DNA of 59,360 bases, filler included, from Sphacelaria rigidula (GCA_964200075.2; 5 parts of 5 records of this genome joined end to end with filler, not necessarily neighbours in it); one strand, 5' to 3'. Counted from the first letter of the whole stretch, positions 3,252 to 57,204 are shown. Numbers and translations are program-made. Notes: generated by a model from the sequence alone, not told the origin.

Positions 3252-4820
3252 TTATTCCTTCTGAGCTGCTTCTTTCCACATCGTAGATTCCGGCAACTTC
3301 ATAGTTTCTTCAAAGTTCGTCGAGACCTTGATCGTTCCCAAACGAAGTTGTGTATTTGTCGCTGCGTAGGCATACTCGACCAGACTAAGCTGTTCCTGTG
3401 AGTGTGCCACGTCTGGAAACTCCCCTTTAGCGTAGTAAGCAAGTTTTCGAAGTTCTCGGACTGTTCTCGACGCAGGCACACGTTGATTACGCTCTGAAGG
3501 CACACGTTGATTAGTCTGTACACGCGTTCTGGTGTGAACGCCCGATGGAACTGACTCGTCGACCAGCGATGGTTCAGTCGACGCCAAACGTTCAGGAGCA
3601 GCAAATAGATCTCGGGACGACATTTCTTTTATGAGATCGAGTATTCGATTAATCAAAATGTCTCCAGTCTCGCGGTTTTCTGAGGGCGAACTAAGATCAA
3701 AGCTTGACGTATAGTTACGCACGTCTCGCATAAGGTCCTCACACTCATCGTACGAAATATTTCCTTCGTCAAAACCGATCACCAAGTTTAGTTCAGGCAT
3801 AACAGGAGGTGTCTCGATGAAGACGACGTTTCGACTCTCGCGTACTTTTCGAGTTTCTGGGTGGTAAATTCGAAAATACTTGCTGTCCATGCTGTATGCT
3901 ACCGGTCGTTCTTCCCACGCGCGGGGTTCCAGTTTCTTGTTATGTGTTTCTACGTGAACAAACGCTCTTGCTCCGATAGTCCGAAGGTGTCCAAGGTTAG
4001 CTTCCTTGGCGTAGAGAGCTTTGAAGGGTGTTTCATTGTTTAGAGCTGAGTGTGGAATTCTATTGATCAGGTATGTGGCAGTTTGCATGAGTTCTCCCCA
4101 AGGGAAATGCGGTAAATCTGAATCAGACAGCATGCATCTAACCATACCCGCTAAGGTGCGTCCAAACCGCTCGTTTGCGCCTATCTGTTGAGGAGTATTT
4201 GTTGATGCAAACTCGAACTTTATTCCTATGTCGAGGCATTACTTGCGAAAGGCCGAACCTGTATTTTCTCCCCCCTTGTCTGCTCTTGGGCGCTCCAAGC
4301 GCAATCCAGTGAGGACGACAACGACCTGGTTGTATAGCTGCAGGGCGTCAACAGCAGAACCCTTCTCCTTGATCAGGAAAATCTCCGTCTATTTTGTGAC
4401 CTGATCATTACACTTGACAACGTGATTGAAGCCACCCAATGCCTGAGGGGAGATTGGTCCCATGATGTCGGTGAAGACTAGCTGAAAGGGAAGCTTGACG
4501 TTGTGAGATGCTCGCTTCGGGTGCGGTTGTTGTGCGCTCTTGCCCACAGCGCAAACATCACAAGCAAGTGGATCTCCGTTATACTCAACATCATTACCCT
4601 GCACTCTCCGTAGGATATTCATACTTCTACTATTGGTGTGACCCAGGCGGCGATGCCACAGGTCTGCTGATTCGGTCCGCAAAGCTACACTATTAGTTAT
4701 ATTGTATGCAGGTAGTTCTAAACAAAAGACATTTAAGTTATCATTCTGAAGCCGCTGCAACGGTATAGCAACTTTCCCTACCTCCAATCGTGGTAGTGAG
4801 GGATAAAAAATCGTTGTCAC
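3252..4820 (-). pseudogene. Copia GAG-pre-integrase and integrase, interrupted by stops
   Basis: LWHRRLGH…CDVCAVGK, FQLVFTDIMGP, MVRCML…WGELMQTATYLINRIP, KKLEPRA, ESRNVVF. Confidence 0.92.
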
Positions 4821-6550
4821 TCCCCTTTTCGTAGCTGCCGGGACAGAGAAGAGATTCCTTCCAAGGCCAGGAACGATAAACGCTCTGAAGTTGATTGGTA
4901 TCTTGTGACCGTTGACGTCATTGACAGTACCGTGGATAGTACCTTTACCGACACCTTCGAGTTGATGGCCACCAGATTCATGCTAAGATGGGTGGGGGGG
5001 TATTTTGGGCCGTTTCCTTCCACGAAATTTTGCTTGAAATCGTCGTTAATAGTAGCAACGGTTGTTCAAATGCGCTTACTTCCGATAAATAACGCCCACT
5101 CATACCGCTTGACACCGCTTTTACCCAAATACAAGCGCGCCGCGAGTGTGTTAGGTCGTCTGAAGCATATATGAGCCCATTTTTTCGTGGAATCAAACAC
5201 CCCCCCCCCCAACGTAGCACGACTCACCAGCCGTGCAGATTTTGTGAGGCTTGTGAAGTACAGTGTAGTTCTTCATACGAACTGAGAAATCCGGTAAGAG
5301 CGAAGGATCGACGAGTGTGTCAGACGCCCTACTATCCATCAGCATGATGATGGATGTAACTCTCGGACTCAAATCGGCGCTCGAACTTAAAGTAGACGTC
5401 ATGAAGACCCCTCCGAGTGCACCAAAAAGTCCAGAGGTGTTTTTTTGTTGAAGGGGTTGTCTAACTTCAGCCTGTGATGGTCCTAACTGTATTTCGTATT
5501 TCCCGGTAGCCGTTGGCGTCGGAGAGTTGACAGCTGTCGTCGTCGTCGTGTTGAATGCGGTGGTGTTTGCAGTGTGTCTTATGGCGGAGAACGGAAATCC
5601 AAACGAGGAGTTGTCCTCGTCTTCCGGGAGATGGGCACTCCCCACTTGTGCAAAATTGGCTTGAGGAGGCGTCTGATTCTTCAGTTTTGCTTGCGCTTGA
5701 CATTCATCATCGGAATAGGTTTCAATCGGTCATACGAACACCACTTGTCGCCACCGCCACCTTTCTTGGAGTTTTTTTTCTTGTAATATTTGGGGTGATG
5801 TTGTTTGGTAGAATCCGGGCAATCATGCCGGCGGTGTCCGTAGTTTTTGCATTGGTAGCATTGGACCCTGTCGGGCGCAGCTGCCATTGCTACTCCACGT
5901 CCAGTGACGAATGGGCCCGACGATTTCTGAGAAAGTTCGTCAATGTACATGTTGATGACAGTAGAACGGATTTCTGGGAGGCCAAATGAGCGATCACGGT
6001 GACTGGTTTGTCAAACGAAGTCGTACTCCTTTGGGAGAGCACGAAGAATCACATCTTCGTAGCTTTCGTCAGGGAAAATTTCTCCCATTTCTTGCAATCG
6101 AGCACGCCAATCGTCCATCTTTGAAAAAAAATCGGAAGGGTCCTCGTCAGATTTCATCACTGTAGAAAATAGATTTTTTCGGCATGCACGACAAGCTTCT
6201 TTTGTATTCCCGTCAAATCTATCGTCGAGCGCTTTTCACGCCGCCGCTCCGTTTCCAAGAGATCTAGCTGCAGAAGTCGCCTCGTGCGCTTTTACAGTTA
6301 TGTGTGCGGATCCTTCCGTTGCGAAGTATGAAAGTGGGAAACTGTTTCCGTTCGCTTGGTCCCATTTAGCGACATCTTCACTATTCGTGGCCGAGGGATG
6401 AGGACGCGGAGTCCCGTCCAAAACTGCCAGTATTTCGGGCGAATGAAAGCCGATAGCCTGACGCATTTTCGACTTCCATTCGCGATACCCAGGGCCCGAG
6501 CATTTCGATATAAGCTGTAACGTCCTATGTACGGAAGACGATTCCGCCAT
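4821..6550 (-). pseudogene. Copia gag (CCHC knuckle) and aspartic protease, decayed and split by a MITE
   Basis: YREWKSKM N-terminal gag motif, CYQCKNYGHRRHDC zinc knuckle, LMDSRAS (degenerate DSGAS). Removing the MITE restores ICTAGGHQLEGVGKG…FIVPGLGRNLFSV. Confidence 0.9.
4975..5225. mobile_element. MITE (251 bp), 4-bp TSD ACCA, Sola-like family
   Basis: Imperfect TIRs GATTCATGCTAAGATGGG…GGGGTATTTTGG and (rc) GAGTCGTGCTACGTTGGGG…GTGTTTG. ACCA at 4971-4974 and 5226-5229. Excision restores the copia protease frame. Confidence 0.9.
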
Positions 6551-10078: not shown

Positions 10079-11379
10079 ACAGGCTGGGCCGCCTGAGAAG
10101 CAGACTTCCTTCAGCCGGGTCTAACTGACGATTTATCGCGAGTTGTGCCTACTATGACACATCGTGGTCATCTGCAACTCAACGCGCGTATTTCACTTCA
10201 CGTAGTACTGCGATCTGACAAGTTTCCATCAAACGAAATACCAAACTGTAGTCAGCTGCGAAGTGGAGAGAGTTGACGGTGGCATGTGCGGCGGAATTAG
10301 GGGGAAATATGGCTGAAATCGCACTGGCGGTTACAGTCGGTTGTACTGCGGCCGCAAAGTGATGGTGCTGCACTAGTTGTGGTTGTACAACAATAATTCG
10401 TGTCGTACTGTACGCGCGCAGGGTCTGAGGTGGCACGCAGACGAGACCTCCAGCGCCCCAAGGCGTCGGGCTTGTAGAAAACGTCAAAATTTCCGGCTGA
10501 GGTTGTTGTAGTCGAAAAGCAAGTGAAGCGATTCTCGACAGAAAACCGCGATTTCACTGCTCAATTTCTAGTCGTTTTCCATGGATTTTTGACACGATAT
10601 ACATTAGGTATATGTTAAGCCCCTACCGTTTCCCCGCCTTGTATTTTCCTGTCCCCTTGTGAGTTATTGGTGATGTAAATTTCCGAACCTCGTTTCCTGG
10701 TACAAAAGTGTCGACAAGTCGTTAAAAAAAAAATGGCAAGGGGGGACGATAGGGACTTCACAACATACCTCATGCGCATCTTGTTGGGATTTCTTGAAGA
10801 AATACTTGAAATTGAACAGCATGACCGCATTTCATTTTTTCGTGGCTGGTCCATCGCCACATGGGGACCAGTCTTGAACACGAACACGCGATTCAACAGC
10901 TTCATTTCAGGTCGTTTTCTATGACATTGTGACACGATGTACACAGGATATATGTGCAGAGACGCCCCCATTTTCCCCGTACATTTATTGTTTCTTCTCC
11001 CTGAGTTATCGGTGACCAAACATTTCGGAACATTTGTTTCGGAATAAAATCGTGAATAAGTCCAAAAACAAAAACAAAAATGTAGGAGGCCGGGAATAGA
11101 GTCTTTGTACATACGTCCTGAACATTGTGTTAAAATTTCGTAGGAAACGACTCACAATTGAGCTGCTAAACCGCGTGTTCACATCCCTGTCCCCGTCTTC
11201 GGCGGCCCAGCCTGTACAGATGTTTTTTTTTCTTGGAATGTGGAGCGGATCCAAATACCTTCAGATCCCCGATGTGATAAGCTTTGGCAAGCGAAAAGAG
11301 CGCAGGAAAATCGCCAATTACGAAAAAAGTCACAAAATGCCACAAAATGAATAGTTAGACTGTTCACCCCTGTATGCGT

Positions 11380-11608
11380 GCATGTATGCACGTATACGTA
11401 AGTATATACATATACATACACACACTTACATACATATGTGCATACATACATACATACATACATACATACATACATACATACATACATACATACATACATA
11501 CATACATACATACATGCACACATACACACATACGCATACATACATACATACATACATACACACACATACATACATACATGCATACATACATACATACATA
11601 CATACATA
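11380..11608. repeat. (TACA)n microsatellite
   Basis: Directly visible; source of the spurious MYVC/HTYI ORFs. Confidence 0.98.
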
Positions 11609-11793
11609 CTGTGGCGAAATCACGCCGTCACGATTGAGTATATAGTGGATCCTGGATGATGACCAGGGGGCATCCTGTAGATGATGACTCTTGATGTGTA
11701 GCCCAGGCCAGATGGTACAGGGTTGCAGAGTATTCACTCCATGATAATGATAAGGGGTGGTAGAGGCTGACAACAGAGACCTTGAGGCCAGAA

Positions 11794-11893
11794 NNNNNNN
11801 NNNNNNNNNNNNNNNNNNNNNNNNNNNNNNNNNNNNNTTAATTAATTAANNNNNNNNNNNNNNNNNNNNNNNNNNNNNNNNNNNNNNNNNNNN
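11794..11893. other. Artificial contig spacer
   Basis: N44-TTAATTAATTAA-N44; stops in all six frames. Confidence 0.98.
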
Positions 11894-12004: not shown

Positions 12005-14103
12005 CGAAAAAAAACGCTCTGCGAGTAGCCGGCGTCACCGATGGTTTGATACGTGCTGGCCGTGCCAATACTTCGCTGGAACGGCGATACGCGTTACGTC
12101 ATCACGCTACTTGTGCTGTACACCTTGTCCTGAGTTTTTTTCTCAGGTGTGTGCATTTAGGCCGTGTGGTGTACTATTACGAGGAAAAAAAGTGATATAT
12201 CGCACCGAAAAATTGGTGGAGGGATGTGCGGACTATAATAGGTGTATGGAAGGATATACAAAAACTCCCTTGACATCGATGTTATCATAATTATTTTATA
12301 CTGTTGCTATTGCTAATGCTACTATGAATTGATTGATTGATTAATTGTCTCACACTATCTGATCCCCGAGTGTTGGTCATTATCCACAACATAGGACGTA
12401 CCGTGCCCAAGGAATAGAAAGAAAAAAAGGAACCGATCGCTGTAGAAGAGAAGGGTGAAGATTACATTTCCTGTTTGGTAATGATCTATATCGCTTTCTT
12501 CGATTCGCGTTTCCCGCTTGCGGACGACGCAAACCAACATACTGGTGAAGGCTACCGTCGGAAATGGAAGTCGTATGATATGTTTCAACCTGTGTGGTTT
12601 TGACCTACGGGCCAGGTCGACCACCGGGGCGCGGCAGCACGAAGTTCATTGTCGCGGCCGACCGGAGACTTTACACAGGATGAGTCGTCACCCTATTTAT
12701 TTATTCATGTACTCGACGTGAGGAGGAAACCTGACCCAACACGTACCCCGCAAGCGGCGCAAGCGGGGTCGCGTACCGATTACCCGGAGGCTCGACCAAA
12801 TTGCCTCTTGGCAGTCATGTGGGGTAGGCACGTCGAGCGTTCGCAAGCTTTGCTCAAGGCACTGTACTGGTCGGGTCGGACACACTAAAATCTCCCACCA
12901 ACTTGGCGGAGCTCACGCGCCAATATGTTCTCAAGAGCTTCCCCCCTAGGTTGCCCCATTTTAGTGAACCTATTTAATATGGTGGTGACCGTCCAAAAAC
13001 ACTCTGTTTTCCTCCCCCAGCGTTGAGCATCCTTGACTTGAAACTTGCGAGGGTAACGCATCTTTCGAAGGAAACAGCGGTCGAGACTGCTGTTTCCCAT
13101 CTGCGTCCGGATAGGTCAGACCTCTTTTTTTGAGGCCTTGAACGAGTGCCTCCTGAACCTCCGAATCATGCATTACCCCACTCGACTACCTCGCCCACAT
13201 CGTACGAATCAAGTCGTATTCGGCGTGTTCCGTTTATCGTAAATTCTAGTCTATGTCCTGTGGGTGACCCGTCGTGGGTACCACGTGTCTCCCTACATAG
13301 AGCTTTTGGCGTCTTTCGTACATGGTAGCAGATGTTGTGCTCGCTGGGTAAGGATGGTTTCCCGCTGTATGAATCAAGTGTGCTCGAGGCGGTCGTCTCA
13401 GTTCGAGCTATGTTCTCGGTAGCGAGTCTGGTTGTGAGCTGTTCGAGTGTTTTTCTATTATTACAGTGCTCCCAACGTGCATAAACCCTCTGTACTACAA
13501 CCACAAGGTATACGAATGACTGACTGATTGTGGAATGTATCACGTGGTCGTGCGCCATGACGCGGAGACAAAAAATGACTGGCTGTCTCGTACAGCGTGC
13601 TCGTCGATACATAAGAAATGGTGGTGCAACACGCATCACCCATTTTACATTCATTTTCGGGTTTCGTGCACCCTTTCCTTCAGGTCCGTTTTGAAAACTC
13701 CCCCCCCCCCTTTTTGCTTATACGAGTATATATTTATTGGGATTTGTCTTTCCACAAATACAGGTGGCGGTCCTAGCCGCTACTCAGATGCCCTCGTCTG
13801 TAATGAAACCCGCCGCCCCCATCTATCACTGAGCAAACGGAAGGAAGTCCCTCATCGTGCCCTCCCGCACGAAAAACCAAATCAAAGCTAATCCCATACT
13901 ATCCTGCGGTGCTGTGGAGAATGACTACAAATATCCCCGTTTTCTCTTCCGCATCGCCCGCAAATGTTTCGTTCTTTGGCCATTTTCAAGTTGCGATGCA
14001 CTCTTTGACTAACCTTACTTCCTGTGTGCTGTGCCCGACGTACGGGGGGGGTTGGGATGGGGTGCGGGGGTATGCTGTAACCGTCGGATTATGACGACGT
14101 AAG

Positions 14104-14234
14104 GGGGGAGGGTTGTGAGCGAGTTCGATCCGTTCCAGAGGCTGACTTCCGTTCACGTGAACTCTACGGACGATCACATGCTGGCTTCGGGTTACACTTT
14201 CGGCGTGAGGCTGTTCGACATCGAAACCAAACAG
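14104..14234 (+). CDS. Exon, DHU1-like WD40 protein (5' boundary uncertain; upstream exons not found)
   Basis: VSEFDPFQRLTSVHVNSTDDHMLASGYTFGVRLFDIETKQ|GTGCAG, phase 0. In-frame TAA at 14100 forces an acceptor at 14103 or 14110. Confidence 0.85.
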
Positions 14235-15269
14235 GTGCAGTCAACACTCTTTCCATTCGTATCCCATGACAAAAGCACTGCGCCGGTGCCGCTGTGTGCT
14301 GCTTATGACCCGTCTGTAAGTACTTTCTCTGTCCCATAAGACAGGGTATTCCAGTTTTCAAGGAGCGCTCACCCCAACGGCGTGTGTGTATGACACTAAA
14401 CTTGGTATCGTTGGAAAGATGAAACGTAGGGGAAGCCGACGGAAAGAAGAAAAAGAAACGACGGATATTTCTTGTCGAAAATTCGGGTAAAAAATGACCA
14501 ATTTCGGAAATATTTTGACATTTTTTGTCTAGAATCAAGTTCCAGCAATTGCGGAAGACGACTGACTTTTCAGGGGGCAGAAGCGTTTTTCAATTTTTCG
14601 TTTTTTTTTTCTGCACTCGGGTTATGAGCGGATATGGCCTTTAAAAGAGAGGAGGATTGATTTTTTTCCGGCTGATAGGCGCCATGGGTAGAAACATGAG
14701 GAAAATACGTGAAATAAAGAATAATGATGAAAAGTACAAAAATGGGTTCCGACGCAAAAAACGCCGAGAAAAATATTAAGAAAAACGTCTTTGCAATCGG
14801 ACACGGTGAAGGACTAGTGTAAAAACCCCAAGTACCCTAACTTATGGGACAGATAAAGTGTAAGTATATTACATATACTGTATGTACTAGCTCACACCCT
14901 CAGGAGGTGACGAAACCGACTGCACATGCATTTTACGATGGTCACCGAAGACGAAACAGCTGTAATGAAAGGACAGTGAGGGTGTGCATATATATCCCAG
15001 ATATGCGTTTCCCAGGAAAGAACGTGAGTACATAGAGTAATCGACTGAGTTTGTTTGACGTGGGCTGACGCGGTGCGGGAGTGCTGAGCCAATCGGCGAG
15101 ACCAAACTGCAAGGCTTATACCAGGGGAGAGATGGGATGATTCCTTGAGACCACGCAGTTATCCCGAGGAAGGGGAGGGGTTCAAAGTGCGACGAATCGT
15201 TGACGAAAAATGTGCGTGTTTCGACGTACATGTATCCTGGTACGCGTACTTGATTAAAATAATTTTGAA

Positions 15270-15530
15270 GGATCGGAGGAATGATGATTCGTCTGAAAAT
15301 TTCTTGCTCCCGGTATATATGACCTGTACCGCACGAATCAATCAGTCGTTAGGCTTTGTTTTTCAGCGTTGCACCCCAGGTGCGTGAAATAGCGCAAAAA
15401 TCGCGTAAGAGACTTGTTTCGCTTGTGGTCAATTTTCTCTGTCTTTCGATCAGTCATGCGTCAGAAATCGTAGATTTGGTGATTCGAACCGACGATGATT
15501 CATCAAACTCTTGAAAATTTTGAAGTCTTG
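15270..15530 (+). repeat. Dispersed intronic repeat (also ~22435-22700, ~35495-35578)
   Basis: Shared TGATTC.TCTG(A/G)A.AT…CGAATCAA in all three; CAGCGTTGCA.CCCAGGT…AGAAATCGT.GATTTGGTGATTC in the first two. Confidence 0.65.
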
Positions 15531-16359
15531 CCGCGCACTATCAAGATCTGCACCTGGCACCCTTTCAGAATTTTGCAGCAATTGGGGACAGGCAGGCTCG
15601 TTTGAAAGCTGGGGGTCAAGCGTTCCCAATACAAGTTTATAGCGCGTGCGCTGGCGCTGTTGGGGACGGAGAGATATTGATCGAGATGTTGTGCTTTATA
15701 AGCTTTCATTCCCTGCGAATGCTGGACTCGCTCTGTTGCGATGTCACGGTGTACAAAATGCACATGCCGTCGTCCCATTCCGCTTTTGCTTACTGTGTGT
15801 GCACTGTGTTCATTGGTGCTGCTTCTGTATGGTGTGTTCATTTTTGTCATCTCAATGTGATCGCCTCGTTTATAGGACCCAGCCCGCTTACTCATGAGCG
15901 GGGCCCGTCAACCCCGGCATCGCCATCCTCCAACCCCCAGGCTGGGCTATAATCATACTCCTCACTTGGGATGTGCACCATGCTGCATCCCACAGTCGTT
16001 CAGTCCATCTTGTCGCCCTATGCCCTGCATCTGCAAGGCTTTCCAACTCCACGCCCACGTCGCGTTTCTACACACCTCGTACACCCAACACCGAGTGAAA
16101 AGCCAAGACCTGCACACGACATCTGTCCTGGGTTGGGTAGGCCGCATCCATTGTCCACGATTCTTGATTACTTGAAATATTTTTCGTCATTCAATATTTT
16201 TGCCAGTTCCCCTCGCCCCTCGGCGCCGCCCCTCGCTGCAAATCCCCAAAACACACCCCNNNNNNNNNNCCTACCCCCACCCCGCTCCCCTCGTTTTCCA
16301 CTAATTTTTTTTTCCTTTCTTATTTTTTCTGCCCCCCCCCCCCCCCCCCCCCCCTGCAG

Positions 16360-16461
16360 GTGGTGCGAGACTTCAAAGACATCCACCAAGATCACATCAA
16401 CATTAGCCGTTTCGCCAACCATTCGCCTTTTATCTTCGCCACTTCTAGTTTCGACAAAACG
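16360..16461 (+). CDS. Exon, DHU1-like WD40 protein
   Basis: TGCAG|VVRDFKDIHQDHINISRFANHSPFIFATSSFDKT|GTGAGG, phase 0-0. Confidence 0.92.
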
Positions 16462-17484
16462 GTGAGGAGAGTGTAAACCTCTTTATTTTATTTTTGTTTT
16501 GTTTCGTTTTTGTGATGACGATAGGTTATTTTTCCTCGCTTCGACGCGCTAGCCGCCTCATATGAGACTTGTTGTGAAATATATCGTCATGTACCTCGAC
16601 AGGAGCGTTAACGTGGGATTTAGCGCACGTAACAAATACGAGTCGCGGTGTATGGACTGCGCACACTGGATGATGGCAATACTGTAGGTCACATTGTTGA
16701 AGAGTGTGCTGGGTACACTGAGGAATCTACTGTCTATTGCAATAGACACAGTACTCGATACTGTACGCAGTACACTTTTGATTAGGTGATCTATTGTCCA
16801 GGGTGTGATGGATTGTCTCCAGCGATTTTGTGTGGGCCGTTTCAGAATTCTGCTTTATATCTTGCTGTATTTCGGAGATCGATATTCCGCGGGGACCGCT
16901 GTTCATGTGTCCTTCTCCGAGGCTGAAATTTGTCTTGCCCTCCTTCATTTTGCAACCGCTCTAATCGCTGTTTATCCTAATTTTAGCGCTACTACATGAT
17001 TGTAGCTGTATCCCCGCAAGGGCTTCGAAAGGCCTGAGTCTGTTTTGATATTTTGGAGTGTTGAACTTGTTTCGCGCGGTCTCTTTTTCTGTTGCTGTTT
17101 TTTGGCGTTTGACCCCCGCAAAGTGATTGTGATGAACTGCAGGTCTCATTTCAGCATGCCTGCTTCACTTCATTCTTGACTGTTTTTTTTTTCTGGGGTG
17201 TGGGTTTTTTTTTTGTTTTTTTTTTTTTTTTCTCACTTATTTTCTGCCGGTCATTTTTTTTTTTTTTTTTNNNNNNNNNNGGCGTTTGTGCTCGGCTGCG
17301 TGGTTGTGTTGTTCTTCTGGTCTGTTTTCAGTCTGCCTGTTCCACTTCTTTTTTGTCTGTTTTTTTTTGCGGGGGGGGGGGAGTTCGTGCGTCATGTACT
17401 CCGTGCTCTCACTCATTTACGGCCGCTCACATTTTTTTTTCTTCATCTTCGTCTCTTTTTTTGTCGTTCCATCAACCGTTGTAG

Positions 17485-17573
17485 GTAAAAGCGTGGGACT
17501 CGCGTGTGAGGGCAGACAAAGCCCCCATATACACCTGTCACTCGGAGCGAGGGCACGTCATGCTCAGCTTCAG
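17485..17573 (+). CDS. Exon, DHU1-like WD40 protein containing WDxR (DWD box)
   Basis: GTAG|VKAWDSRVRADKAPIYTCHSERGHVMLSF(S)|GTAGAC, phase 0-2. Confidence 0.92.
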
Positions 17574-18533
17574 GTAGACTGGTAGACACACACATACACA
17601 CAAGTAGTATCGAGTGTTTCCGTTCATGTGAAGCAATACCTCAAGTTTTCATCATGTGTGCTTTCACCATGGATGGACTCGTGACGAATCACTTCGTGCG
17701 AGAGATGAATCCAGCCAAATATAGTTATCGACCAATTCCTGCCTTCTTTTTCTTTTTTTCGTCGTATTTGGTGCTCTCTGGTCTTTGAGAGTGAGTTTTA
17801 CGATTAGGTAAGGGAAACCAGAACGCAGCTGTGGATGTGGCGCATTTTTTTTTATTGACAGCCTCCGCTTCTAGGATGTCATATTCTTGTTGGAATTTTT
17901 ATGATCTGAGCTATCCGCATGATGTTGATGATACGCGCACGTACCCGGAGAGGGACGGGTTGAGATCCCTCCAAGATCACCGACTCGTCCCGAGGAAGGG
18001 TCTTGATGAGATAGTGAATGTATTGAAACAGCGGAAACATGAGCGGGGCAACACCAGCCCACACGTTGGTTAATAATGGAATGCATCGGTCAGGACCCGT
18101 CCGTCCAAGTGCTGGAACTTGATCAGGCGTTCGCGAAGCCGAGAAGGGGTTGGAATCATGACATGGGCAAGAAAGAAGAGAAAAAAGTCGGCATCTGGAG
18201 TGTTTTTGTCGGAATACGTTGTTCACCCCCCCCCGGTAACTGAACTTCCGGAACCCATTTATTCGTCACCCGCGGGTATTATCCTGTGTTGCACACGGTA
18301 TCTACATACAATTTACACCGTTTATTTTTATTTTTAAACCCTGACCTGGATGATACCGACGCCACTGTGAATACCTACCTTACCGCTCCTTGTCATTCCC
18401 AGCTTTACTCGCCATGCTCGTGTCTGTTTTTGTTGTGTTTTCAACTTCGGTCGCTCCTGCTGCCGAATGGAAAATTGACGCGAACTTACGTTTTTTTTTC
18501 TTGTATTTGTTGTTCCGTTTGTCTGGAAAATAG

Positions 18534-18683
18534 CCCGGACGACGTTTTTTTGCTCACCTCGGCGGTTGACAACGAGATAAAGCAGTATCTTACCGTGGAT
18601 GGGAGGTTGCACATGGATCTTGATGTGCCCAAGACGGGTCTGGAGGAGAACTACACGCGCTCGTACTACACGTCCAGCGGGAG
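18534..18683 (+). CDS. Exon, DHU1-like WD40 protein
   Basis: ATAG|PDDVFLLTSAVDNEIKQYLTVDGRLHMDLDVPKTGLEENYTRSYYTSSG(R)|GTGTGT, phase 2-2. Confidence 0.92.
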
Positions 18684-18711
18684 GTGTGTTGTCAAGTTGG
18701 GGAGTGTTGGG

Positions 18712-18812
18712 GGCCTGTACTCATGATCTTGCATGCCGTAGTCATCTGACCATTGACCCCGCATCCCTACAAAGCCGGGACGGAGCACGCCGGGTTTTCG
18801 CCGGACCAGGTT
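18712..18812 (+). repeat. Dispersed repeat family (copies ~20312-20590, ~24275-24375, ~28268-28318, ~32775-33030)
   Basis: Shared TCATGATCTTGCA.GCCGTAG…CGCATCCCTACAAAGCCGGGACGGAGCACGCCGGG…CGCCGGAC, usually preceded by a G run. Confidence 0.8.
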
Positions 18813-19223
18813 CGCATTCCCCAAGCTCCAAGCTTTTTTTTTTCTGGTGGGGAGTGGTGTATGTATGTGTGTATGTATTTGTTTTATTTAGGGGCGGGGG
18901 AAGGTGAATAGTCTTTGACAATTTCTGCGGTTCTTCTTCAACACGCTTGGCCATGCAGTGCGTGCACGCATGCTGAGCCTGATTGACTGCGCCGTTTTCA
19001 CTGGAGCAAAGTGAGAAGATGTACCACATATCCTGTCGTGCCTGCCCCTGTTATGCTAGACAGCTCTACGGAGGAAACGCTCAATATTTTTTCGGTGTGA
19101 AACACAGTATGCAGCTAGCTGGTTGTCTCTATGCCGAATTTTTCAACTCGGCAGATAAACCCCTCGTGCGCTGGACCAACCATCTGATTTGAGTCCTTGT
19201 GTCATCTTCCCCTCTTCCACCAG

Positions 19224-19352
19224 GTTGATACTCTCCGGGTCGTCGGAGGAGCAGATCGTAAGGCTGTACTGCGCACAAACAGGCCGCCTCATACATTCGG
19301 CGGAAATGTATCCAGGGCGCAAACACGGCTCGCTTTACGTCCAATCTCTCAG
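19224..19352 (+). CDS. Exon, DHU1-like WD40 protein
   Basis: CCAG|LILSGSSEEQIVRLYCAQTGRLIHSAEMYPGRKHGSLYVQSL(R)|GTGATA, phase 2-2. Confidence 0.92.
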
Positions 19353-20587
19353 GTGATAACTGTTATTTTCGGCGTTCGCTTGTGCTAGCTGGCCAGCAGG
19401 AGGGAGAGACTCGTCTGCGCTGAGGTTCCGCTTCGATGTTTTCATCTTCCTCCCCCCCCCCCCCCCCCAACCAAAAATAAAAACAAATCTAATAAAAACA
19501 CCAAACCAAAATAACAATAATATTACCACAAAAANNNNNNNNNNCATCCGGGCGGGCGGGCCCCGCGCCCCCGACACCGCCTCTCCCCTTTTTTCTCCTC
19601 CCCCCCCCCCCCCCCCCCAAAACAAACATACAAGTAAAAGTGGACACATACACAAACATACATGCAAATAATGAAGCGAACAAGTGGAGCCTTCGTCGTT
19701 TATTTCATGTTTCAGTCAGAACAAAGGCGGCGCTCAGTCTGTTTGTGCCAATAGCGTGTGTACACATTCTTGTCGTTGGCCTAGGTCGCCACGACTGCTT
19801 CGTTCATGATAGCATATGGCTGTGTTTATAACTAAAGTACTGATTGTCAATCCCTTGGACATCGACAAGCTCCGCGCTAACCGCATCCACGGTGTAAGAA
19901 CGTAAGTGTCATACACGACGGCCGCCAAAAAATACAGTTGACCTTCTCCAGCGCGTGGACAGTGTGCTGATTGCATAGCATTATTACAGGGGGCCTTCAT
20001 AAGTTCTTGCGGACGAAAATCGACTAGTTTGGTCGTGCATAGATTCCTTTGAAAGTTAATCGTTTCTCTTCGTCTCACCGCGAGAACAAAAATAGGGACT
20101 GCAGGTACTGTCGAGATCGGAGCCCACTCATTCCAACCGGAAGTGCAACAATGTAGTGTTGATGGTAGGTTGACAGCTGGGGCGCGGCGGTAAATTATAT
20201 CGCATGTATTGATTGGATTACTAGTAAGCTTTATTAGGTCTGGCCCCCAGAGGTTGAAATCCCTCATCTTTTAACTTCAGCGGTGTCGCCGGCTGACACC
20301 GCTGTTGCTAGGGAGTATCTTCATGATCTTGCACGCCGTAGTCGTTGGACCATGGATTTCGCATCCCTACGAAGCAGAGACGGATCACGCGGGATTTTTC
20401 CCGCACAAGGCTTGCAATCAATCACCGAACGCGAAGCGCCGTGATGTGTCCGGCGAGTCGCTCGAAGCGTGAGCTGCATCTTGCTGAGGTTGTTCGGCCC
20501 GAGGCGTACTGACATCTTGCATTTGGATGACAGCCTCCAATGAGTTGGCTCGTTCTCTGATACGACCACGTCCAGAGACAGCCACGA

Positions 20588-20760
20588 GTTTGATTGATTG
20601 GTTGATTGTCGCACTTCAACTGACCCCCCAGGGGTCCAGCCGTGGTCTTATGATGGACGTCCCCAAGAAAAACGAAACTGAAGCACGCTCTGAGAAAAAG
20701 AAGGAACGGAAAAAAAGGGGGGGGGGGGTCGAACAGAACGACATCGCAGACTAAGTCGTA
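20588..20760 (-). repeat. 3' end of a SINE/LINE-like repeat with (TCAA)n tail (second copy ~25180-25330)
   Basis: TTGATTG…TTGTCGCACTT.AA.TGACCCCCCAGGG.TCCAGCCGTGGT…AAAACGAAACTGAA is shared between contigs 2 and 3. Confidence 0.65.
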
Positions 20761-21047
20761 ACAAAAAAAGAGGAAATGAAAAAGTAGTTACACCGCCTCA
20801 TTGTGTGTCTCACCGTTCATCACCGCGTGCCGCTGTAGCTATTAATAGGGGATGCTGTGATCACCTCTGTTCGGGTCGACCCGCTTTCTGAAGGACCCGG
20901 GCCCGTTGACACGGACCGTCATGCAGGTTTCATCAGCCCTGCTATCCTCTAGGGGGCAATCACAAGATAGAGTACAACAAAATGCCGAGACTTTCGTCGC
21001 TTCACCTACAAGTTGTATCGCTTCGTTTTGCATGTTGTGCTGCCCAG

Positions 21048-21152
21048 GGGCGACCCTCATCATGACTTCCAGTTCAGCGTGCTGGTCAATTACAGAGACA
21101 CGGCATACCCCCTGGAGATCGTGACGGTCGACATGCTGCAGGGAAACAATGG
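21048..21152 (+). CDS. Exon, end of DHU1-like WD40 region
   Basis: CCCAG|GDPHHDFQFSVLVNYRDTAYPLEIVTVDMLQGNN(G)|GTGAGG, phase 2-2. Confidence 0.9.
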
Positions 21153-22088
21153 GTGAGGGTGGAGGAAGACATATCCTGTACGTAGGCTGAAGTCGGAATA
21201 AATCGCACCCGGTGATACCGGTGAACATATGTACGGCCACGTGTGCTTTTTTTTTTTTCTTGAGAAACTGGAAGTATGGCGAATCCCGTTCTTTTGAGCG
21301 ATCACTTTCACGGGGACAACTACAAAGTTGAAACACGCGCCGAACGAAATTCGAGAAAGGGGACGGATGAAAGAAGAGGCACAGTACAACAAGTCAACCC
21401 TTAGACCGCGAGGTTAGTCTTCTGTTGAATCGGCATCAACTTCAAGTGAAAAAAAAGTATGCATGATCCAGAGAGACTAATCTCGCGGTGTAAGGGTTAA
21501 ACGAACAGACTCAGCTGAAGAAGACAATAAAAAGGAGGACAAACGTGCCTCCAGCAAGCGAGCTGAAATCGGCGTTTGAGCGGAAAGGCGTGCTGTTCAC
21601 GCTGGCGAGCACTTCGGGCGCTGTCTGCCCCATCCCTGTACCCTTCTACCCGAAAGATCTGAATGTGATGATCTACTCTTGGATCAAACATTCAAAACTA
21701 GTTTTCAAGCATTGAATATGGATATAAGTTAATGCAAAGCTGTACGGCTGCTGCCAACTCTTTGATCGCCGGGCTGGGTAATCTGGATCATACCAAGTAC
21801 ATATTTCATTTTTTTCAATTGACAACGGCACCGATTCGACAGATAAACCACCTCTGCGGTCACAGAGTTGAAGCTCTTCCTCCCCCCCCCTTTTTTTTAT
21901 ATCATTTTCCAAAAGGGATGACCTCAGCTTCGTAGCGATGATGTACCTGCACCCACAGTTGTACAGGAATCCGCCGTTTTTGTTATCACTTTTTTTGTGT
22001 GACAAACGACATTAATGTCCTCAGTGACCAAGAAGACGGGTCACAAATGCGCCAAATCGCACCGTGCCTGTTATTGACCACCATCTAG

Positions 22089-22303
22089 GGAGGATCTTAG
22101 CTCCCTCATGACCTACACGTCATCCTCGCGGCTCTCGGCTGACCTGGGCCGCGCGTGTGTAGAGAAAGAAGGGGCCGATGTTCATCTCGTATCGAGAGAC
22201 CGGTCGCGTTTCTCTGCGCACAAAGCCATACTGGCGTGCCGGAGCCCGGTTCTCAGCAGCTTGCTCGCTGCGTCTGCTGCTACTTCTGCCGAGCCGTCTA
22301 CAG
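22089..22303 (+). CDS. Exon encoding N-terminal half of a BTB/POZ domain, in phase with the WD40 exons
   Basis: CTAG|EDLSSLMTYTSSSRLSADLGRACVEKEGADVHLVSRDRSRFSAHKAILACRSPVLSSLL…|GTGAGG; classic DV.L…F.AHK.ILA.RSPV BTB motif. Confidence 0.88.
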
Positions 22304-23686
22304 GTGAGGCGACCTAGAGTTTTGGTCGTATATCTATGGTTGATTTTGTCGAACACACTAACAACAACGTTGAAACCCTAACCCTAACCCCGACCCAAGG
22401 CGTACGAGAGCCTCGGGCAAGGGGGGTGCATAGGTTCAAGGGTCGGCCAAATAATGATTCGTCTGGATATTACCTGGTTTTAGTGTAACTGATTCGACTT
22501 GTACGAATCAACCCCTAGGCTTTGTTTGCAGCGTTGCAACCCAGGTACACGCAGCCCAGACACGTGGAATGGCGCAAAAACTGCGTGGATACCCCTTGGA
22601 CCAGCGATCAACTNNNNNNNNNNTTTTCTCCCTTTTGGGTAATCAGGCCGAAGAAATCGTGGATTTGGTGATTCTTAGTCGTGATGATTCGTCCTAACCG
22701 TGCATAGCTTCCCCTAGGCAAAGGGTGCGTTGGAAAACCTGAAGTCGACGCCGCAGGCGCTGATTTCGATAAAAACACGTTCTGGACGAGCTAGACCCAC
22801 TGCTCACCTGTCCCAAACCATAAAATTTCTCAGAACTTTGTCGACTCTAAAATCAAATAGTCATGTTTTTCAACCGGTGATGTACAACCAAAGCTTCAGG
22901 TGTGCTGCTACAGGTACGTATGCTGTAGTGCTACATGCATGGAGGTTTCAGAATTGCCATCCGATTGATGTTGACTTCCGCCTTTGGTGGAGGCAAGCTG
23001 GCAAGAAGTGGAGTGCATACTTTCTAGTACCGCCAGTACCCCGCTTATTACACTAGTGTGCATGACTCATGTATTACTCTATATTTTTACAAAAGTATTG
23101 TGTGCCATGACTCGTCCATCTCAGTAAGTGTGTGTGCTGACTAGCTGTGTACAGTTAGCTGTGCCTAAGTACGCGCCTCGTGTGGTGTATGAAGAGCAGA
23201 ATTTCGCGCCGCTTTTGGCCTGCCATGCGTGAGAGATGTGACGAGAGATCGTCAATTGAAAAACGAAAAGGGCGAGACGTAAATGCCATCTTGGGGCAAG
23301 TTAAAGAAATATTAAATAGTTTGCGAAAAAGATCTACGAGTATGGCACGATATTCAAAAAGGAGGACAGGAATAGTCGTTTGCAAATAATGCCCGGCATC
23401 TTGCACAAGAGATGGTCCGCTGTTTTTTTTTTTCTCGTTCCAACTTCCTTCGAAACGTTTCGATTGTTCTCATTCGTACGGGTTCAAATCGTACGTAGCT
23501 TCCGCAGCCCGAACAACTATTATACAACCAGTACCTAGTCGTACGCAAATAACTGCTCAATCATGAAGAAATGCTTGGAAATGCTCGGTCACCCATCTGT
23601 ACAACTAGGTGTTTGCGGACCGACGTCCGGATGGGTAGGGTGACTCATGTACAGAGTCGAGCTAGGGGACATTGTAGGAGGTTTGG

Positions 23687-23786
23687 NNNNNNNNNNNNNN
23701 NNNNNNNNNNNNNNNNNNNNNNNNNNNNNNTTAATTAATTAANNNNNNNNNNNNNNNNNNNNNNNNNNNNNNNNNNNNNNNNNNNN
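23687..23786. other. Artificial contig spacer
   Basis: N44-TTAATTAATTAA-N44. Confidence 0.98.
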
Positions 23787-24217: not shown

Positions 24218-25991
24218 CTGAGCGTTTTTTGTTCCGAATTCAGCAAAACGGAAAAATATGGGGGGGGGGGGGGGGGGGGTGTACTCAGAACCATGCATGC
24301 CATAGCCGTATGACCTTTGACCTCGCATCCCCACAAAGCCGGGACGGAGCACGCCGGGTTATCGCCGGACAAGGCGGGGGGGGAGGGGCGGGGCGAGGGA
24401 AGGGAAAAAGGAACAAACGAAACAAAAATAAGGGTGGCCCGTAGATTCTTCAGTACGGCAGGTGGTAGTATGAAAACATGTAAATCCCGTGATTGATGTA
24501 TTCACCTGGCTGTTCCCGTTCTGAACGCAATAGTTCAGAAATATACATAAAAATGATAAGAGTTATGCCTCGGTAGAGGCTGCACACTTGGGCCCAGATC
24601 TCTCAATCGAGAGGGGCTCCTAACGTCAGGAGCTGCGAAAGAACATGGATCAGGACATTCCCGTTCTAAATTCCATTCGAGATACCAGTAATCCATTGGA
24701 ATCCTGGGTGCTCTCACATATCCCGTAAATAATTTTTTTCGATGAGGCAAGGGCCCTTATATTTCAAAATCTGAGAGACGGTTTGTGCACCCTCCCCCTA
24801 CCGTGGCATGACTCGATGAAGAGGAAAAAGAACGACGACAAAACAAAAAAAAAAGGAGAAGCAACTTTTTTTTTTATCATAAGCGCAAACAGAGTTGAAG
24901 AATTGGCTGCCTGCTTTTGTTCGGGATGAGTTTTGCGTAAAAAATTTAAGTGCTAAATTTAACAGAGCACTTTTACTACTGCTCTCTATGCCACTCAAGA
25001 ATCTAGGCGACACTCCGGTAGTCAAGCCACCTCTGGCCGGTCCGGTCCGGTCCGGTCCGGGTCGCCCAACATAACGTCGAAAACTCGCCCCCGGTAGCCC
25101 ATATATATCGAGACGGTCCTAACCACGAGTGATTACCCCAGTTCGGCTCCAAGTTGTTCAAAGCTGGTATTACGGGGTTTGATTAATTTGATTGATTGAT
25201 TGTCGCACTTTAATTGACCCCCCAGGGATCCAGCCGTGGTTACATGATAGACGTACCCAAGACAAAACGAAACTGAAACACTCGCTGAAGTGAAGAAAAA
25301 AAAGAAACAGAAAAAAGATAACAGAACAACACAAGTAGACCAAGACGTGGAAAATAAAAAAATCATTGAAAAAATATATAAAAATGAGATGGCATACACC
25401 AATATTCGGATCTTTGGTGGGGCTGACAGTCGCGAGTATTCCCTCCTCGCGTGCGCATTTCGCGTTTTTTTGTGTGTGTGTGTGTCGAAATCGGGCACCA
25501 TACGTGTCGATTTCAGGTCTGATAACGCACACTTTGCCTGGAGCAACACACCCTTTCCACCCCCCCTTTGCCCCGGGGTTCTCGGTATGCCTTGGGTTAG
25601 GGTTTCGGTTAGGGCTCTATTTCCGAATTGTATCAACCATGATTTTTCGGGAGGAGAACTGGAATCGATCCCCCCCACCTTAGCCGCTCCGTCTCAAAAG
25701 GGATGCGTGGTCAATGGTCACACGACTGAGGCAAGCAACAAATGAGTACGTTCCCCCCCACCCACCCTAGCCGACCCCTTGGGGGGGCGAGTTTATTCAC
25801 TTTGAGAATTCGTTCATGCCGGTGCCAAACATTACTTGATTCTATTATAGAGTACGAATGCTGCCGGAGCAGCGAAGGCCCACAACACGCTTCGCGGGTC
25901 GAAAGGGTTGATTTCAGTAAATAAGGACTCGAGAAAACAAAAAAATGACCACCCACGGCGGGTGTCCGTCCGAAACTGTTGAATTGGAACC

Positions 25992-26293: not shown

Positions 26294-28489
26294 ATACATG
26301 CACTTGATGACAAGGAAGGACCGTCAGTGAAGGGCCCATCGCTGTCCGATCTGCAGCCACTCGAAACGTTCGTGACTCGTTCAGCATGTTTCTGAGCAAA
26401 AGTAGACTCCAAGGGTGTGTTCTGTAGGGTACGGGATTTCTTGCAGTACTTACAGAGTCTGTCGGGTATGTTGCGGAGGTTGTACAGAAACCTTAGCCCC
26501 GCAACCGGGTATCCCTACAAGAGTATATCCGTGCCCCGAGTAAGAGTAAACATTTGCTGGGGAACTTACAGAACGTTCAGGTTCTGGGGTGGGAGACGTA
26601 CAGAAGTAACATAACTATAGGGTGCGAGGCGGTCTAGCCGAACCTCCGGGTAATTGGCATTCGAACCCGTTAGCGGGGAAGTGTTGAGTGAGATTTCCTC
26701 ATGCATTTAGGGAAAAAAGGATCGGGGTAAGGGTGATACCCGGAAAAACAGCCCGGATATACGAAAAATCGTGCCCTCCAGAACGCAGTCTCGATCATTT
26801 CTGCGTCGTGAGAGCATTACAAATATTGCGGTATCATTCTTCCAATACATACTCCATGAGACAGGTATTAATACTACTAACCTTTCGCATATGTTTTTCA
26901 TTTGCATGAAAAAAGTATTTTCCAAGAAAATTCTGAGGTCTGAGTATATATCATAAATAATACTCCAAGCTTTCCGCGATACCACTCTATGAGCTCAGGT
27001 TTACCTTGGCTTTTCCAAGTTACAAGTCGTCAAGTGTATTCATTAATATAGTAGAAGCACTACGTTTAACCAGGTCAAAAAAGTCTGTAACATCTAGTAC
27101 CCGAACTCGAACGCGTGAGTCCTTCGAGCAAGCGCCCAGTAAGTGAGTGAGTGACTTGTGTGATCGTCCGTTTTAATCGACATGCGATTCATCGATTTTT
27201 TCACTTTGACGAAATAAAAACGACCCAGCCTTTCAACCGCTACTTTGCAATACCTACCCAATACTCTCATATGTTCGGTTAATTCTAGTTACGAGCGAAA
27301 CCCTTAAGTATTTCATGTTTCGAATATTTAATGATAAACTTAGTAAATACCGCTATAAGCTTTTAGGTTCTATAGAAACATTAATGTTATTATAAAGCTT
27401 TTGTAGACTATGAAAAAAACATAACATCATACCGAAGAGGGTGACATAGCCGAATTCGTGTTCAAGGCTATAGTGGGTGGCGCTAAGGGCGAAAATGTAC
27501 CTCAACCAATCAACCCTCTACGAATTGTTCTGAAATCGAACATACGAATTCCAAGCCCAATTTTCACCCAATCTCCACATGCTTCAAATCCCAGTGACCG
27601 CGATCAAATCGAGAATCTGAAGGAAAATATATATATCCGAAAACGGCTACTACGGGATCGTATTATACCCGAAATCGTGGTGTTTCGGTGATGTGGTGTT
27701 TTGAGGCCGTCTAATTTCCACTCATAGTACGCACGAAAGACGCAGAGAGCCTCGTGACGGTTTCCCTCACAACTGTCGTGAAAAGCTCAGATCGCCCCCC
27801 AACTTGGCAATTCTGTAGAAAAAGTAAAAAAGTGAAAAAGGAAAAAAAAACTGGACCTTCGGAAGTTGCGTGATGACCCACAGCAAAACTGTGCAAAATT
27901 TCAGGGTCTAACGCCTGATAATGGCGTGAAGCTATGCGCATGAGTATTTTTAGATTGATAAGCGTGAGCCAGCCTGTAATGAGAGGCGAGACGTATCTAG
28001 TATTTTTTCATTTTCATCTTATCAGCCGCTGCAGCAAAAAATGGCAATGGCGATTACTTCCAGTGTCCAAGTTCAAGCCTCTGAGACCCAGAGCTATGTC
28101 GAAGAAATAACGCCTGTTCAACGGTTTGGAGTGACCTCGCATCATGGTTACCGCAAAAAAACGCAAGTGCGCAATAAAAAATCGATAACCTGTTTACCTA
28201 GCTTACGTACGGAGTGACGTGCTTTTACAGCGTCGTTGCCAACCGATACCAACCGCACAGGGGGTTCGTCCCTACAAAGCCGGGACGGAGCGCGCCGGCG
28301 TGTCGCCGGACCAGGCTAACCAAGGGGGAGATGGGTCCATCTGCTTTGAGATCATACATGCGAACGGACTCAACTCGTCCCGAAGAAGAGAAGAGCTCGA
28401 CAGCGTTGCTCTCGCTCTCACGAAGACAAAACAAGTTGTGGAGCAAGACATCATGGACATAAAGTACAAAAACGAAAGAAAGAGCGCAC

Positions 28490-32595: not shown

Positions 32596-33929
32596 CTGCC
32601 AAGAAAGATACGTTCCGCGCGTTCCGGGTGTGGCGGGATGCATATGGCGTTGATTCATGCAGGGGAGCAGCAGGGAGAAGGACAGGAGACGAGAGAGGAG
32701 AGAACTTACGAGCGAGCGAGCTCGAGAGTACTTATGATCTTGCATGCGATAGTGGAGAGGAGAGGGGGGGGTGGGGGGAGTACTCATGATATTGTATGCA
32801 GTAGCCATAAATCGCAAAAGTCGGACGCAGCACGACGGAATTTCGCCGGACCACGCCCGCAATCACCAAGCGCGAAACGTCATGATGTGTTCGGCGAGTC
32901 GGATGGAGGGGGAGCTGCATCCTGCTAAGGTGGTTCCACACGAAGCGTAATGATTTTGTTGCCTATGGATGACAGCCTCCAATGAGTTCCTTCATTTCCT
33001 GGCATCGTCACTTCCAGAGACAGCCACGGGTTACACACTGCCTCATGGGTGTTGTACCCCGTAAGCAACATGTATTACGATCACCCCTTTTGCACAATAG
33101 TATTATGTGACTCGACCGTCATCATGGATACCGAAAAAAACAAAAAAATATGGGCGGAGGCGAGGCGGCGGATGTTTTACTGTATACTTGACACCTTTAC
33201 TCAATTTACAGTAGTCACAAGGCGAATATTAACCGGTGAGTTTCATCTTCGGGTTACGACTAAAAAGCTTTGTTGGGAGGAAGGCATATGATGTAAGGGA
33301 TACAAATCGTGCGGAAGCGGGTCCATGTACGTATGTGTCGATTTGATGCGGTGAAGCTCATAGCGCCATGTATATATACAAAAAAAAATATATATATATA
33401 TATGTATATATTACTTCTTCAAGTTAGCATAATCGTCTGCGGCATGTCTTCATCATGAACCCAACCATAGCATCGTCATCACCCCTGTCAGGGGGATAGG
33501 ATCTGCACCCCATGGCTCGCCTAACGTACGGAATGGGGGAAGCGACTATGAGTTTTGAGCGTGGTCTTATAAAGAGGTTGCAGTCCTTTGGTAGAAGGCT
33601 AATAGTGCCAAGTACAAAGCTGCTGAATACGATGTCATCCACTGGACCTGTGCTTTTTGTCACAGGGGAAAAGGAGACGAGCGCTGCAGCCACATTGTTT
33701 AGACATTGCAGATGAATAGTAATGCATCAGTAACTAGTTTCAGGTTTCACGCTGCTCAGTAGACTCGTTTCAGCTGCCCTGCATGATTGTAGGCTATGTG
33801 ACTTCATCACGAAATTGATTACAGATTTCAAAATAAACGTTGCCACCCGTGCATTATTTCTTAATTCGCAATAAAGCACAGGCCAGTATTTAGTTCAATA
33901 GTTAAGAACACAGCGCACTGGTTGCCCTT

Positions 33930-35578: not shown

Positions 35579-35678
35579 NNNNNNNNNNNNNNNNNNNNNN
35601 NNNNNNNNNNNNNNNNNNNNNNTTAATTAATTAANNNNNNNNNNNNNNNNNNNNNNNNNNNNNNNNNNNNNNNNNNNN
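35579..35678. other. Artificial contig spacer
   Basis: N44-TTAATTAATTAA-N44. Confidence 0.98.
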
Positions 35679-47469: not shown

Positions 47470-47569
47470 NNNNNNNNNNNNNNNNNNNNNNNNNNNNNNN
47501 NNNNNNNNNNNNNTTAATTAATTAANNNNNNNNNNNNNNNNNNNNNNNNNNNNNNNNNNNNNNNNNNNN
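47470..47569. other. Artificial contig spacer
   Basis: N44-TTAATTAATTAA-N44. Confidence 0.98.
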
Positions 47570-57047: not shown

Positions 57048-57204
57048 GCCGTTTCTTCCGGTTGGTTATATCCCCTCGTATTTCACAACATATTATGAGG
57101 AAAAAATACCGCTAGGAAACTATTTTGAGAGATGTTGACCCTAGCTTACGGTTGCAGATATATTTTTGAGGGGGGTGGGTACCAAAAGGGTGGGGGGATA
57201 CCAT

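Follow-up and report, generated by a model that had tools for sequence, protein, structure and literature searches.

A DHU1-like WD40 propeller spliced in frame to a BTB domain in Sphacelaria rigidula, and its two-propeller relatives in stramenopiles

Exon structure of the WD40–BTB locus

The locus described here lies in a window of 59,360 nucleotides (nt) from Sphacelaria rigidula (GCA_964200075.2), the whole stretch of DNA that was analysed, which is composed of five pieces of 11791–11793 nt. One of these pieces carries, on the + strand between 14104 and 22303, all seven exons, A to G, of a reading frame that encodes blades of a WD40 propeller resembling that of the plant protein DHU1 and, without interruption, the beginning of a BTB domain. 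Each exon is preceded by AG and followed by GT, as read from the DNA and checked with a script; joined across introns of phases 0, 0, 2, 2, 2 and 2, they make up 921 nt that hold 306 codons and no stop (Table 1), with the exons where an earlier note on this DNA, made from the sequence alone, had placed them. The motifs quoted in that note (LTSVHVNSTD, KAWDSR, FSPDD..SAVDNE, NYTRSYY, CAQTGR and YVQSLRGDP) are all present, FSPDD..SAVDNE straddling the C|D joint and YVQSLRGDP the E|F joint; HINISRFANHSPFIFATSSFDK and ADVHLV..FSAHKAILACRSPV, the latter forming the BTB start, were both found in the exon translations. Exon A is entered in phase 1 and left in phase 0, so that at least one coding exon must lie upstream, and exon G is left in phase 1, so that the frame continues into an exon outside this piece.

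The exon blocks are mirrored in brown-algal proteins: in a tblastn comparison, residues 155–443 of P0016 and residues 158–446 of P0014 map onto exactly these seven blocks. The joined translation is 84–86% identical to P0016, P0014 and P0011 over 289–299 amino acids (aa), colinear and unbroken across the WD40-to-BTB joint. The continuity of the WD40–BTB frame is not a matter of chance.

Table 1. Exons of the WD40–BTB reading frame, with their coding content, the support for their borders and the matching contig pieces
Exon	Position	Strand	Coding content	Support	Contig piece
A	14104-14234	+	WD40 blades, ..LTSVHVNSTD..	AG/GT; tblastn with P0016 aa 155-198	14101-14237
B	16360-16461	+	WD40, HINISRFANHSPFIFATSSFDKT	AG/GT; tblastn	
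C	17485-17573	+	WDxR box KAWDSR at 17488-17505	AG/GT; tblastn	
D	18534-18683	+	WD40, SPDDVFLLTSAVDNE..NYTRSYY	AG/GT; tblastn	18532-18681
E	19224-19352	+	WD40, ..CAQTGR..YVQSL	AG/GT; tblastn	19222-19349
F	21048-21152	+	last WD40 strands, GDPHHDFQFSVLVNYRD..EIVTVDMLQ	AG/GT; tblastn	21045-21151
G	22089-22303	+	linker and first third of the first BTB domain (BTB1)	AG/GT; tblastn	22088-22303

The polypyrimidine tract of exon B is a very long C run (16335–16354). Four 10-N gaps, all intronic, were noted at 16260–16269, 17271–17280, 19535–19544 and 22614–22623, and three of these have a long run of C or T nearby.

Spliced contigs across the exon joints

Three public sequencing runs of a single study, from three samples (X1, X2 and X3; the RNA nature of X1–X4 is a guess), each contain one contig (2569, 2446 and 2692 nt, respectively) in which the exons stand back to back with 0 mismatches. 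Along the contig record, the distance from 14104 to 22303 is exactly 921 nt and equals the summed length of the seven exons, so that exons B and C are covered although no pieces are listed for them; the 186 nt unlisted between the exon A and exon D pieces equal these two exons, counting the ambiguous end bases. In X1, record positions 998–1213 lie on 22088–22303 and positions 1214–1320 on 21045–21151, and the exon F and G pieces adjoin in the X1 and X3 records (e.g. 1213|1214), while in X2 the exon F piece is unlisted and leaves a record gap of exactly 107 nt. The ends of the contig pieces are off the exon ends by 1–3 bases that can be assigned to either exon at the joint. Beyond the run of exons, the contigs extend by 997 nt on the exon G side and by 648 nt on the exon A side. 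The 21152/22089 junction, over which the earlier note had proposed to look for RNA-seq reads, is joined exactly in contigs of three RNA-like runs. Unspliced contigs over exon–intron borders (e.g. 12836–14388 and 21460–22334) were found in a DNA run, X5; it retains the introns, and the intron-less form is therefore not the genomic form. The in-frame splice from the WD40 part to the BTB part is real and transcribed.

Architecture of the fused family

Full-length relatives share one order of domains, namely an N-terminal DHU1-like WD40 propeller, BTB/BACK, a Kelch propeller and a second BTB/BACK, within 1100–2000 aa; examples are Cladosiphon P0016 (1976 aa), P0021 (1566 aa), P0026 (1487 aa), P0031 (1440 aa) and P0039 (1297 aa). 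By alignment with these relatives, exons A–G would represent residues ~155–453 of a protein of this size and, on that comparison, are the middle of one transcribed, much larger gene. The earlier picture of a DHU1 homologue with an added BTB domain accordingly holds for the WD40–BTB splice, but covers only the middle of a WD40–BTB–Kelch–BTB protein, whose propeller cores stand apart from the plant-type ones.

To survey the relatives, a HMMER scan with P0011 was run over 1.84 billion representatives, which returned 206 proteins at E<=1e-30, and the best 150 of the 206 were classed by the position of the propeller core. Thirty-two have at least 300 aa after the core, 62 have at least 250 aa before it and fewer than 120 aa after, 55 are short or other, and 1 has no core hit. 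The fused class taken to the domain scan (n=32) consisted of 30 of the 32 C-extended proteins, P0186 and P0194 being left out as they look like multi-WD40 proteins, together with P0064 and P0097; at E<=1e-5 it contains Kelch (PF24681) in 27/32, the ATRN/LZTR1 propeller (PF24981) in 22/32 and BTB in 18/32. In the plant-type class, of which 59 of the 62 proteins were scanned, DHU1_N was detected in 24/59 and leucine-rich repeat (LRR) families in 11–14; the best 25 of its 35 families include no BTB and no Kelch. The earlier note had proposed a survey of DHU1 homologues for a C-terminal BTB. In a search with exon D alone, Pfam BTB is listed for 7 of the 40 matches, six of them WD40+BTB proteins of 623–1976 aa, and for the seventh, P0009, BTB alone is listed, but the protein begins at exon D's SPDDVFLL.

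Several relatives are encoded by single open frames on short contigs, such as P0039 (1297 aa on 4668 nt), P0067 (1268 aa on 4005 nt) and P0082 (1318 aa on 4287 nt, a 'complete' transcript open reading frame). These frames are nearly as long as their contigs, which supports one polypeptide whatever the intron model. Further exons of the orthologues were sought by tblastn with P0016, P0014 and P0009 over the whole window, on both strands and at E up to 50, which gave nothing beyond A–G; when 20 conserved peptide patterns were matched to the window, 18 had no match and two had one stray match each outside an exon context. Because the window is made of five joined pieces and the exons lie in one of them, the missing exons are uninformative about intron length or a truncated copy.

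Full-text literature searches found no description of the WD40–BTB–Kelch–BTB architecture. It is conserved yet undescribed, and gene models are public as unnamed products. The fusion itself is no local novelty, being shared across the stramenopiles.

The BTB part and the predicted fold

Exon G alone passes the Pfam BTB cut-off of 20.5 bits with a score of 31.4 (E 2.4e-7), over 22168–22275 and profile positions 9–44 of 110. A full BTB domain is seen in P0140, at 346–468 and directly after the propeller, covering profile positions 7–109 of 110. In most fused-class proteins of the alignment, NYRD..E[IL]V.V is followed by a variable linker that leads into the BTB start, D[VIL].L ... H..IL.AR.P.L. 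A protein search with exon G found none of the same species; its best match is 78% identical.

AlphaFold2 modeling of P0063 (1136 aa, from a 35-row alignment) yielded a mean predicted local distance difference test score of 84.2 and a predicted template modeling score of 0.80. The model predicts a beta-propeller at residues 1–327, a BTB domain with helical BACK at 344–525, a second propeller at 554–913 and another BTB domain with helical BACK at 928–1113. Past BTB1, the relatives are marked by the helices at 435–525 of this model, by the alignment to the SPOP BTB/3-box and by a conserved BACK-like block in phmmer comparisons. Against solved chains, the BTB1/BACK1 part of P0063 met the SPOP BTB/3-box in 9/9 matches (best E 0.0016), and an ESM Atlas search with the same part returned BTB clusters at 0.87, to be taken as a lead only. 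For the Kelch part the best solved relative is LZTR1, with E 1.5e-16 by sequence and a Foldseek template modeling (TM) score of 0.76–0.81. With the whole 1136-aa model as the query, Foldseek retrieved mostly single propellers, including the Kelch domains of KLHDC2 and LZTR1, and WDR5 at TM 0.83–0.85; a sequence search of solved structures with P0011 returned generic WD40 proteins only (WDR5, Apaf-1 and DAW1).

SPOP, a protein of the order MATH–BTB–3-box/BACK, is a CUL3 adaptor with its substrate-binding domain before the BTB. The relatives resemble it in that a putative substrate-binding domain is N-terminal to the BTB and BACK-like helices follow; SPOP differs in carrying MATH where the fused family has the WD40 propeller and in lacking a second propeller and BTB, and the match is weak, as its E value above indicates. 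LZTR1 is reported to be a CUL3 adaptor for RAS-family GTPases, again with the substrate-binding domain before the BTB. In common with the fused family it has Kelch N-terminal to BTB/BACK and two BTB/BACK units per chain, but its order, Kelch–BTB/BACK–BTB/BACK, is not that of the relatives, WD40–BTB/BACK–Kelch–BTB/BACK, in which the first BTB/BACK precedes Kelch and is headed by the WD40 propeller. KLHL-type proteins (BTB–BACK–Kelch) likewise combine BTB, BACK and Kelch in one chain; their propeller, however, comes after the BTB, in the orientation opposite to that of the fused family, and KLHL proteins are not known to have a WD40 propeller.

The DHU1-like propeller and its WDxR box

The likeness of the WD40 part to DHU1, proposed from motifs in the earlier note, was borne out: it is 52% identical to plant DHU1 P0024 over 225 aa (P0024 residues 493–716, E 8e-76). 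Matches to exon D are led by brown algae, with 98% identity for the best record, 94% for Laminaria and 90% for Ectocarpus, and include plant proteins named DHU1. Plant DHU1 (DWD HYPERSENSITIVE TO UV-B 1, AT4G34280), which is of the DWD/DCAF type, has a close propeller, in which the motif series and the WDxR repeat are those of exons A–G. As stated in the earlier note, its propeller lies near the C-terminus and it has no BTB: in P0024 (739 aa), DHU1_N and LRR precede the propeller and the chain ends ~20–30 aa after it. The fused family, in contrast, carries 800–1600 aa after the propeller and next to nothing ahead of it; DHU1_N and LRR are absent before the propeller from the orthologues P0016, P0021 and P0026 and from the family lists of the 32 relatives.

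The WDxR site is held by 34/35 fused-class cores, 56/56 plant-type cores and 29/29 short cores, and alignments A1, A2 and A3 show no variation at its arginine. A strict DWD logo is given in PMC4327156 as [DE]xxxx[ILV][WY]D[ILVM][RK]; DKTVKAWDSR of exon C departs from it, having A and S at two hydrophobic places. It is matched by 15/35 fused-class and 23/56 plant-type cores, which are similar rates. Plant DHU1 is reported in reviews to bind DDB1, COP1 and RUP1 (PMC6761389, PMC6591365), the binding to DDB1 being reported in PMC6761389.

Distribution and propeller tree

Among the named records, every source name obtained is a stramenopile. The brown algae comprise Ectocarpus spp., Cladosiphon, Laminaria, Hapterophycus, Discosporangium and Choristocarpus, and the other stramenopiles are Chrysoparadoxa, the chrysophytes Mallomonas and Epipyxis, the oomycete Aphanomyces and MAST-4. 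One family member of 1397 aa, P0099, is filed under an archaeal metagenome-assembled genome, probably through a binning error.

A quick maximum-likelihood tree was built from 120 propeller cores, leaving out cores of <215 or >320 aa as well as P0186 and P0194, and is unrooted. It requires one change between the two architectures, short rows uncounted, and a branch with a Shimodaira–Hasegawa-like approximate likelihood ratio test (SH-aLRT) value of 99 separates 35 fused-class and 14 short cores from 56 plant-type and 15 short cores. With the cores split by this branch, recent gain of a BTB by a plant-type DHU1 does not account for the gene. The fusion is widespread in stramenopiles and old, while the unrooted tree does not set the order of origin of the fused and plant-type forms.

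Proposed function and alternative readings

We hypothesize that the locus belongs to a transcribed gene of a two-propeller stramenopile family whose product acts as a CUL3-type adaptor; taken whole, splice included, this explanation has in our judgement a little better than an even chance. The WD40–BTB–Kelch–BTB protein would probably work with ubiquitin ligases. As a BTB-type (CUL3) substrate adaptor it would combine a seven-blade WD40 with a six-blade-type Kelch propeller, each N-terminal to its own BTB/BACK, as MATH is in SPOP and Kelch in LZTR1, and would thus amount to two such modules in tandem. The DHU1-like propeller would add a second module for binding substrates or partners instead of serving as a stand-alone DDB1–CUL4 receptor, and would thereby have moved to another cullin system relative to plant DHU1.

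Several observations weigh against this proposal. For 20900–22400 the records list no RNA run; X1–X3 are not on record as RNA and come from a single study, and their contigs are fragments of 2.4–2.7 kb, not full-length transcripts. The rest of the gene lies outside the window, and the full architecture in this species is taken from its relatives, only 18/32 of which reach the BTB threshold of E<=1e-5. In brown algae a long low-complexity insert splits BTB1, and in P0016 Pfam sees the second BTB only. The near-universal WDxR arginine of the fused class, a residue typical of WD40 proteins that bind DDB1, is compatible with a retained CUL4 link or with a structural role, and DDB2 chains from DDB1 complexes are among the Foldseek matches (TM 0.71–0.75).

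The last two points are also those that speak for a dual adaptor, as suspected in the earlier note, in which the WDxR propeller docks DDB1–CUL4 and BTB/BACK docks CUL3, so that two ligases are coupled or cross-regulated. The box stands at the homologous repeat in fused-class and plant-type cores, with similar rates of the strict logo and an invariant arginine, and DDB1 binding is reported for plant DHU1 itself (PMC6761389). Exon C, however, misses two hydrophobic positions of the logo (PMC4327156), and WDR5 fits the model better than DDB2 does. The WDxR box is known, moreover, from some WD40 proteins that do not bind DDB1. We regard a dual adaptor as distinctly unlikely, and slightly more doubtful still is the further step in which one protein bridges CUL4 and CUL3 so that one ligase ubiquitylates or regulates the other, or both target a substrate bound to the Kelch propeller. 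BTB domains also serve as plain dimerisation modules, and a protein that engages no cullin, with its BTB/BACK units only oligomerising and the whole acting as a scaffold that gathers the partners of the two propellers, would suit the divergent BTB1 with its inserts in brown algae and the weak sequence likeness to SPOP (E 0.0016). The BACK-like helices after both BTBs, as in cullin-binding adaptors, and the nearness of the Kelch part to the CUL3 adaptor LZTR1 argue against such a scaffold, which we consider unlikely although deserving of more weight than the dual adaptor.

Another account would deny the fusion altogether: a WD40 gene would end at TGA 21154–21156, a BTB gene would start at an ATG, and their common frame would be coincidence or an artefact of prediction. 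Reading through the exon F donor indeed gives GGG TGA, an immediate stop, an in-frame ATG is found inside exon G at 22108–22110, ~20 codons before the BTB core, and plant DHU1 ends near the same point. The TGA was nevertheless rejected as a natural gene end. An immediate stop is typical of a GTGA/GTAG donor in a phase-2 intron, and so is no sign of where a gene ends; the donors after exons C and E (GTAG/GTGA, phase-2 introns) produce the same stop, whereas none arises from the GTGT donor that follows exon D. The spliced contigs of three runs join 21152 to 22089 exactly, the same joint lies within one open frame in relatives from intron-poor organisms, and the 84–86% identity runs across it. 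The two-gene account is contradicted, and we leave it scarcely any probability.

DCAF-type WD40 receptors and BTB adaptors are the substrate choosers of two cullin ligase families and are normally separate proteins; here, a propeller near that of a plant DDB1–CUL4 receptor is built permanently into a protein with two BTBs and two propellers, from MAST-4 flagellates and oomycetes to kelp-like algae. The family may thus offer a natural experiment in receptor modules moving between cullin systems, as well as a concrete candidate for one protein serving two cullins. Caution is due with names: the plant name is the sole support for the UV or light role that the earlier note had suggested, and neither that name nor the UV-B role should be transferred to stramenopile genes from the propeller alone.

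Other features of the window

The pieces of the window are separated by four identical 100-nt linkers (N44-TTAATTAATTAA-N44) at 11794–11893, 23687–23786, 35579–35678 and 47470–47569, each holding a stop word for all frames. With such a word at regular spacing the linkers look artificial, and in the genome the pieces may lie apart. The first linker is reached by a long TG/CA-rich, microsatellite-like stretch (11179–11793) that translates as YVCM repeats.

A short dispersed repeat family occurs in the introns and beyond (18699–18810, 20299–20410, 24263–24374, 28269–28315 and 32809–32855). Contig depth over 18592–18985 reaches ~1e5 for the RNA-like runs and 3.8e6 for the DNA run, which marks a very high-copy element. 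At 22376–22396, ~70 nt past exon G, there is a telomere-like CCCTAACCCTAACCCCGACCC, the reverse complement of which was seen in a contig loose end at 21398; it may be part of a repeat element flanking exon G.

Between 48500 and 57200 (+) there are long open frames of 334–439 aa, with no Pfam match at E<=0.001; by eye, 48531–49766 resembles 56134–57138, and the region is possibly an unclassified mobile element. A copia-type retroelement occupies 1770–4982 (-), with matches to RVT_2 (E 7e-60), a retroviral SH3-like domain (1.6e-19) and GAG-pre-integrase (2.7e-9).

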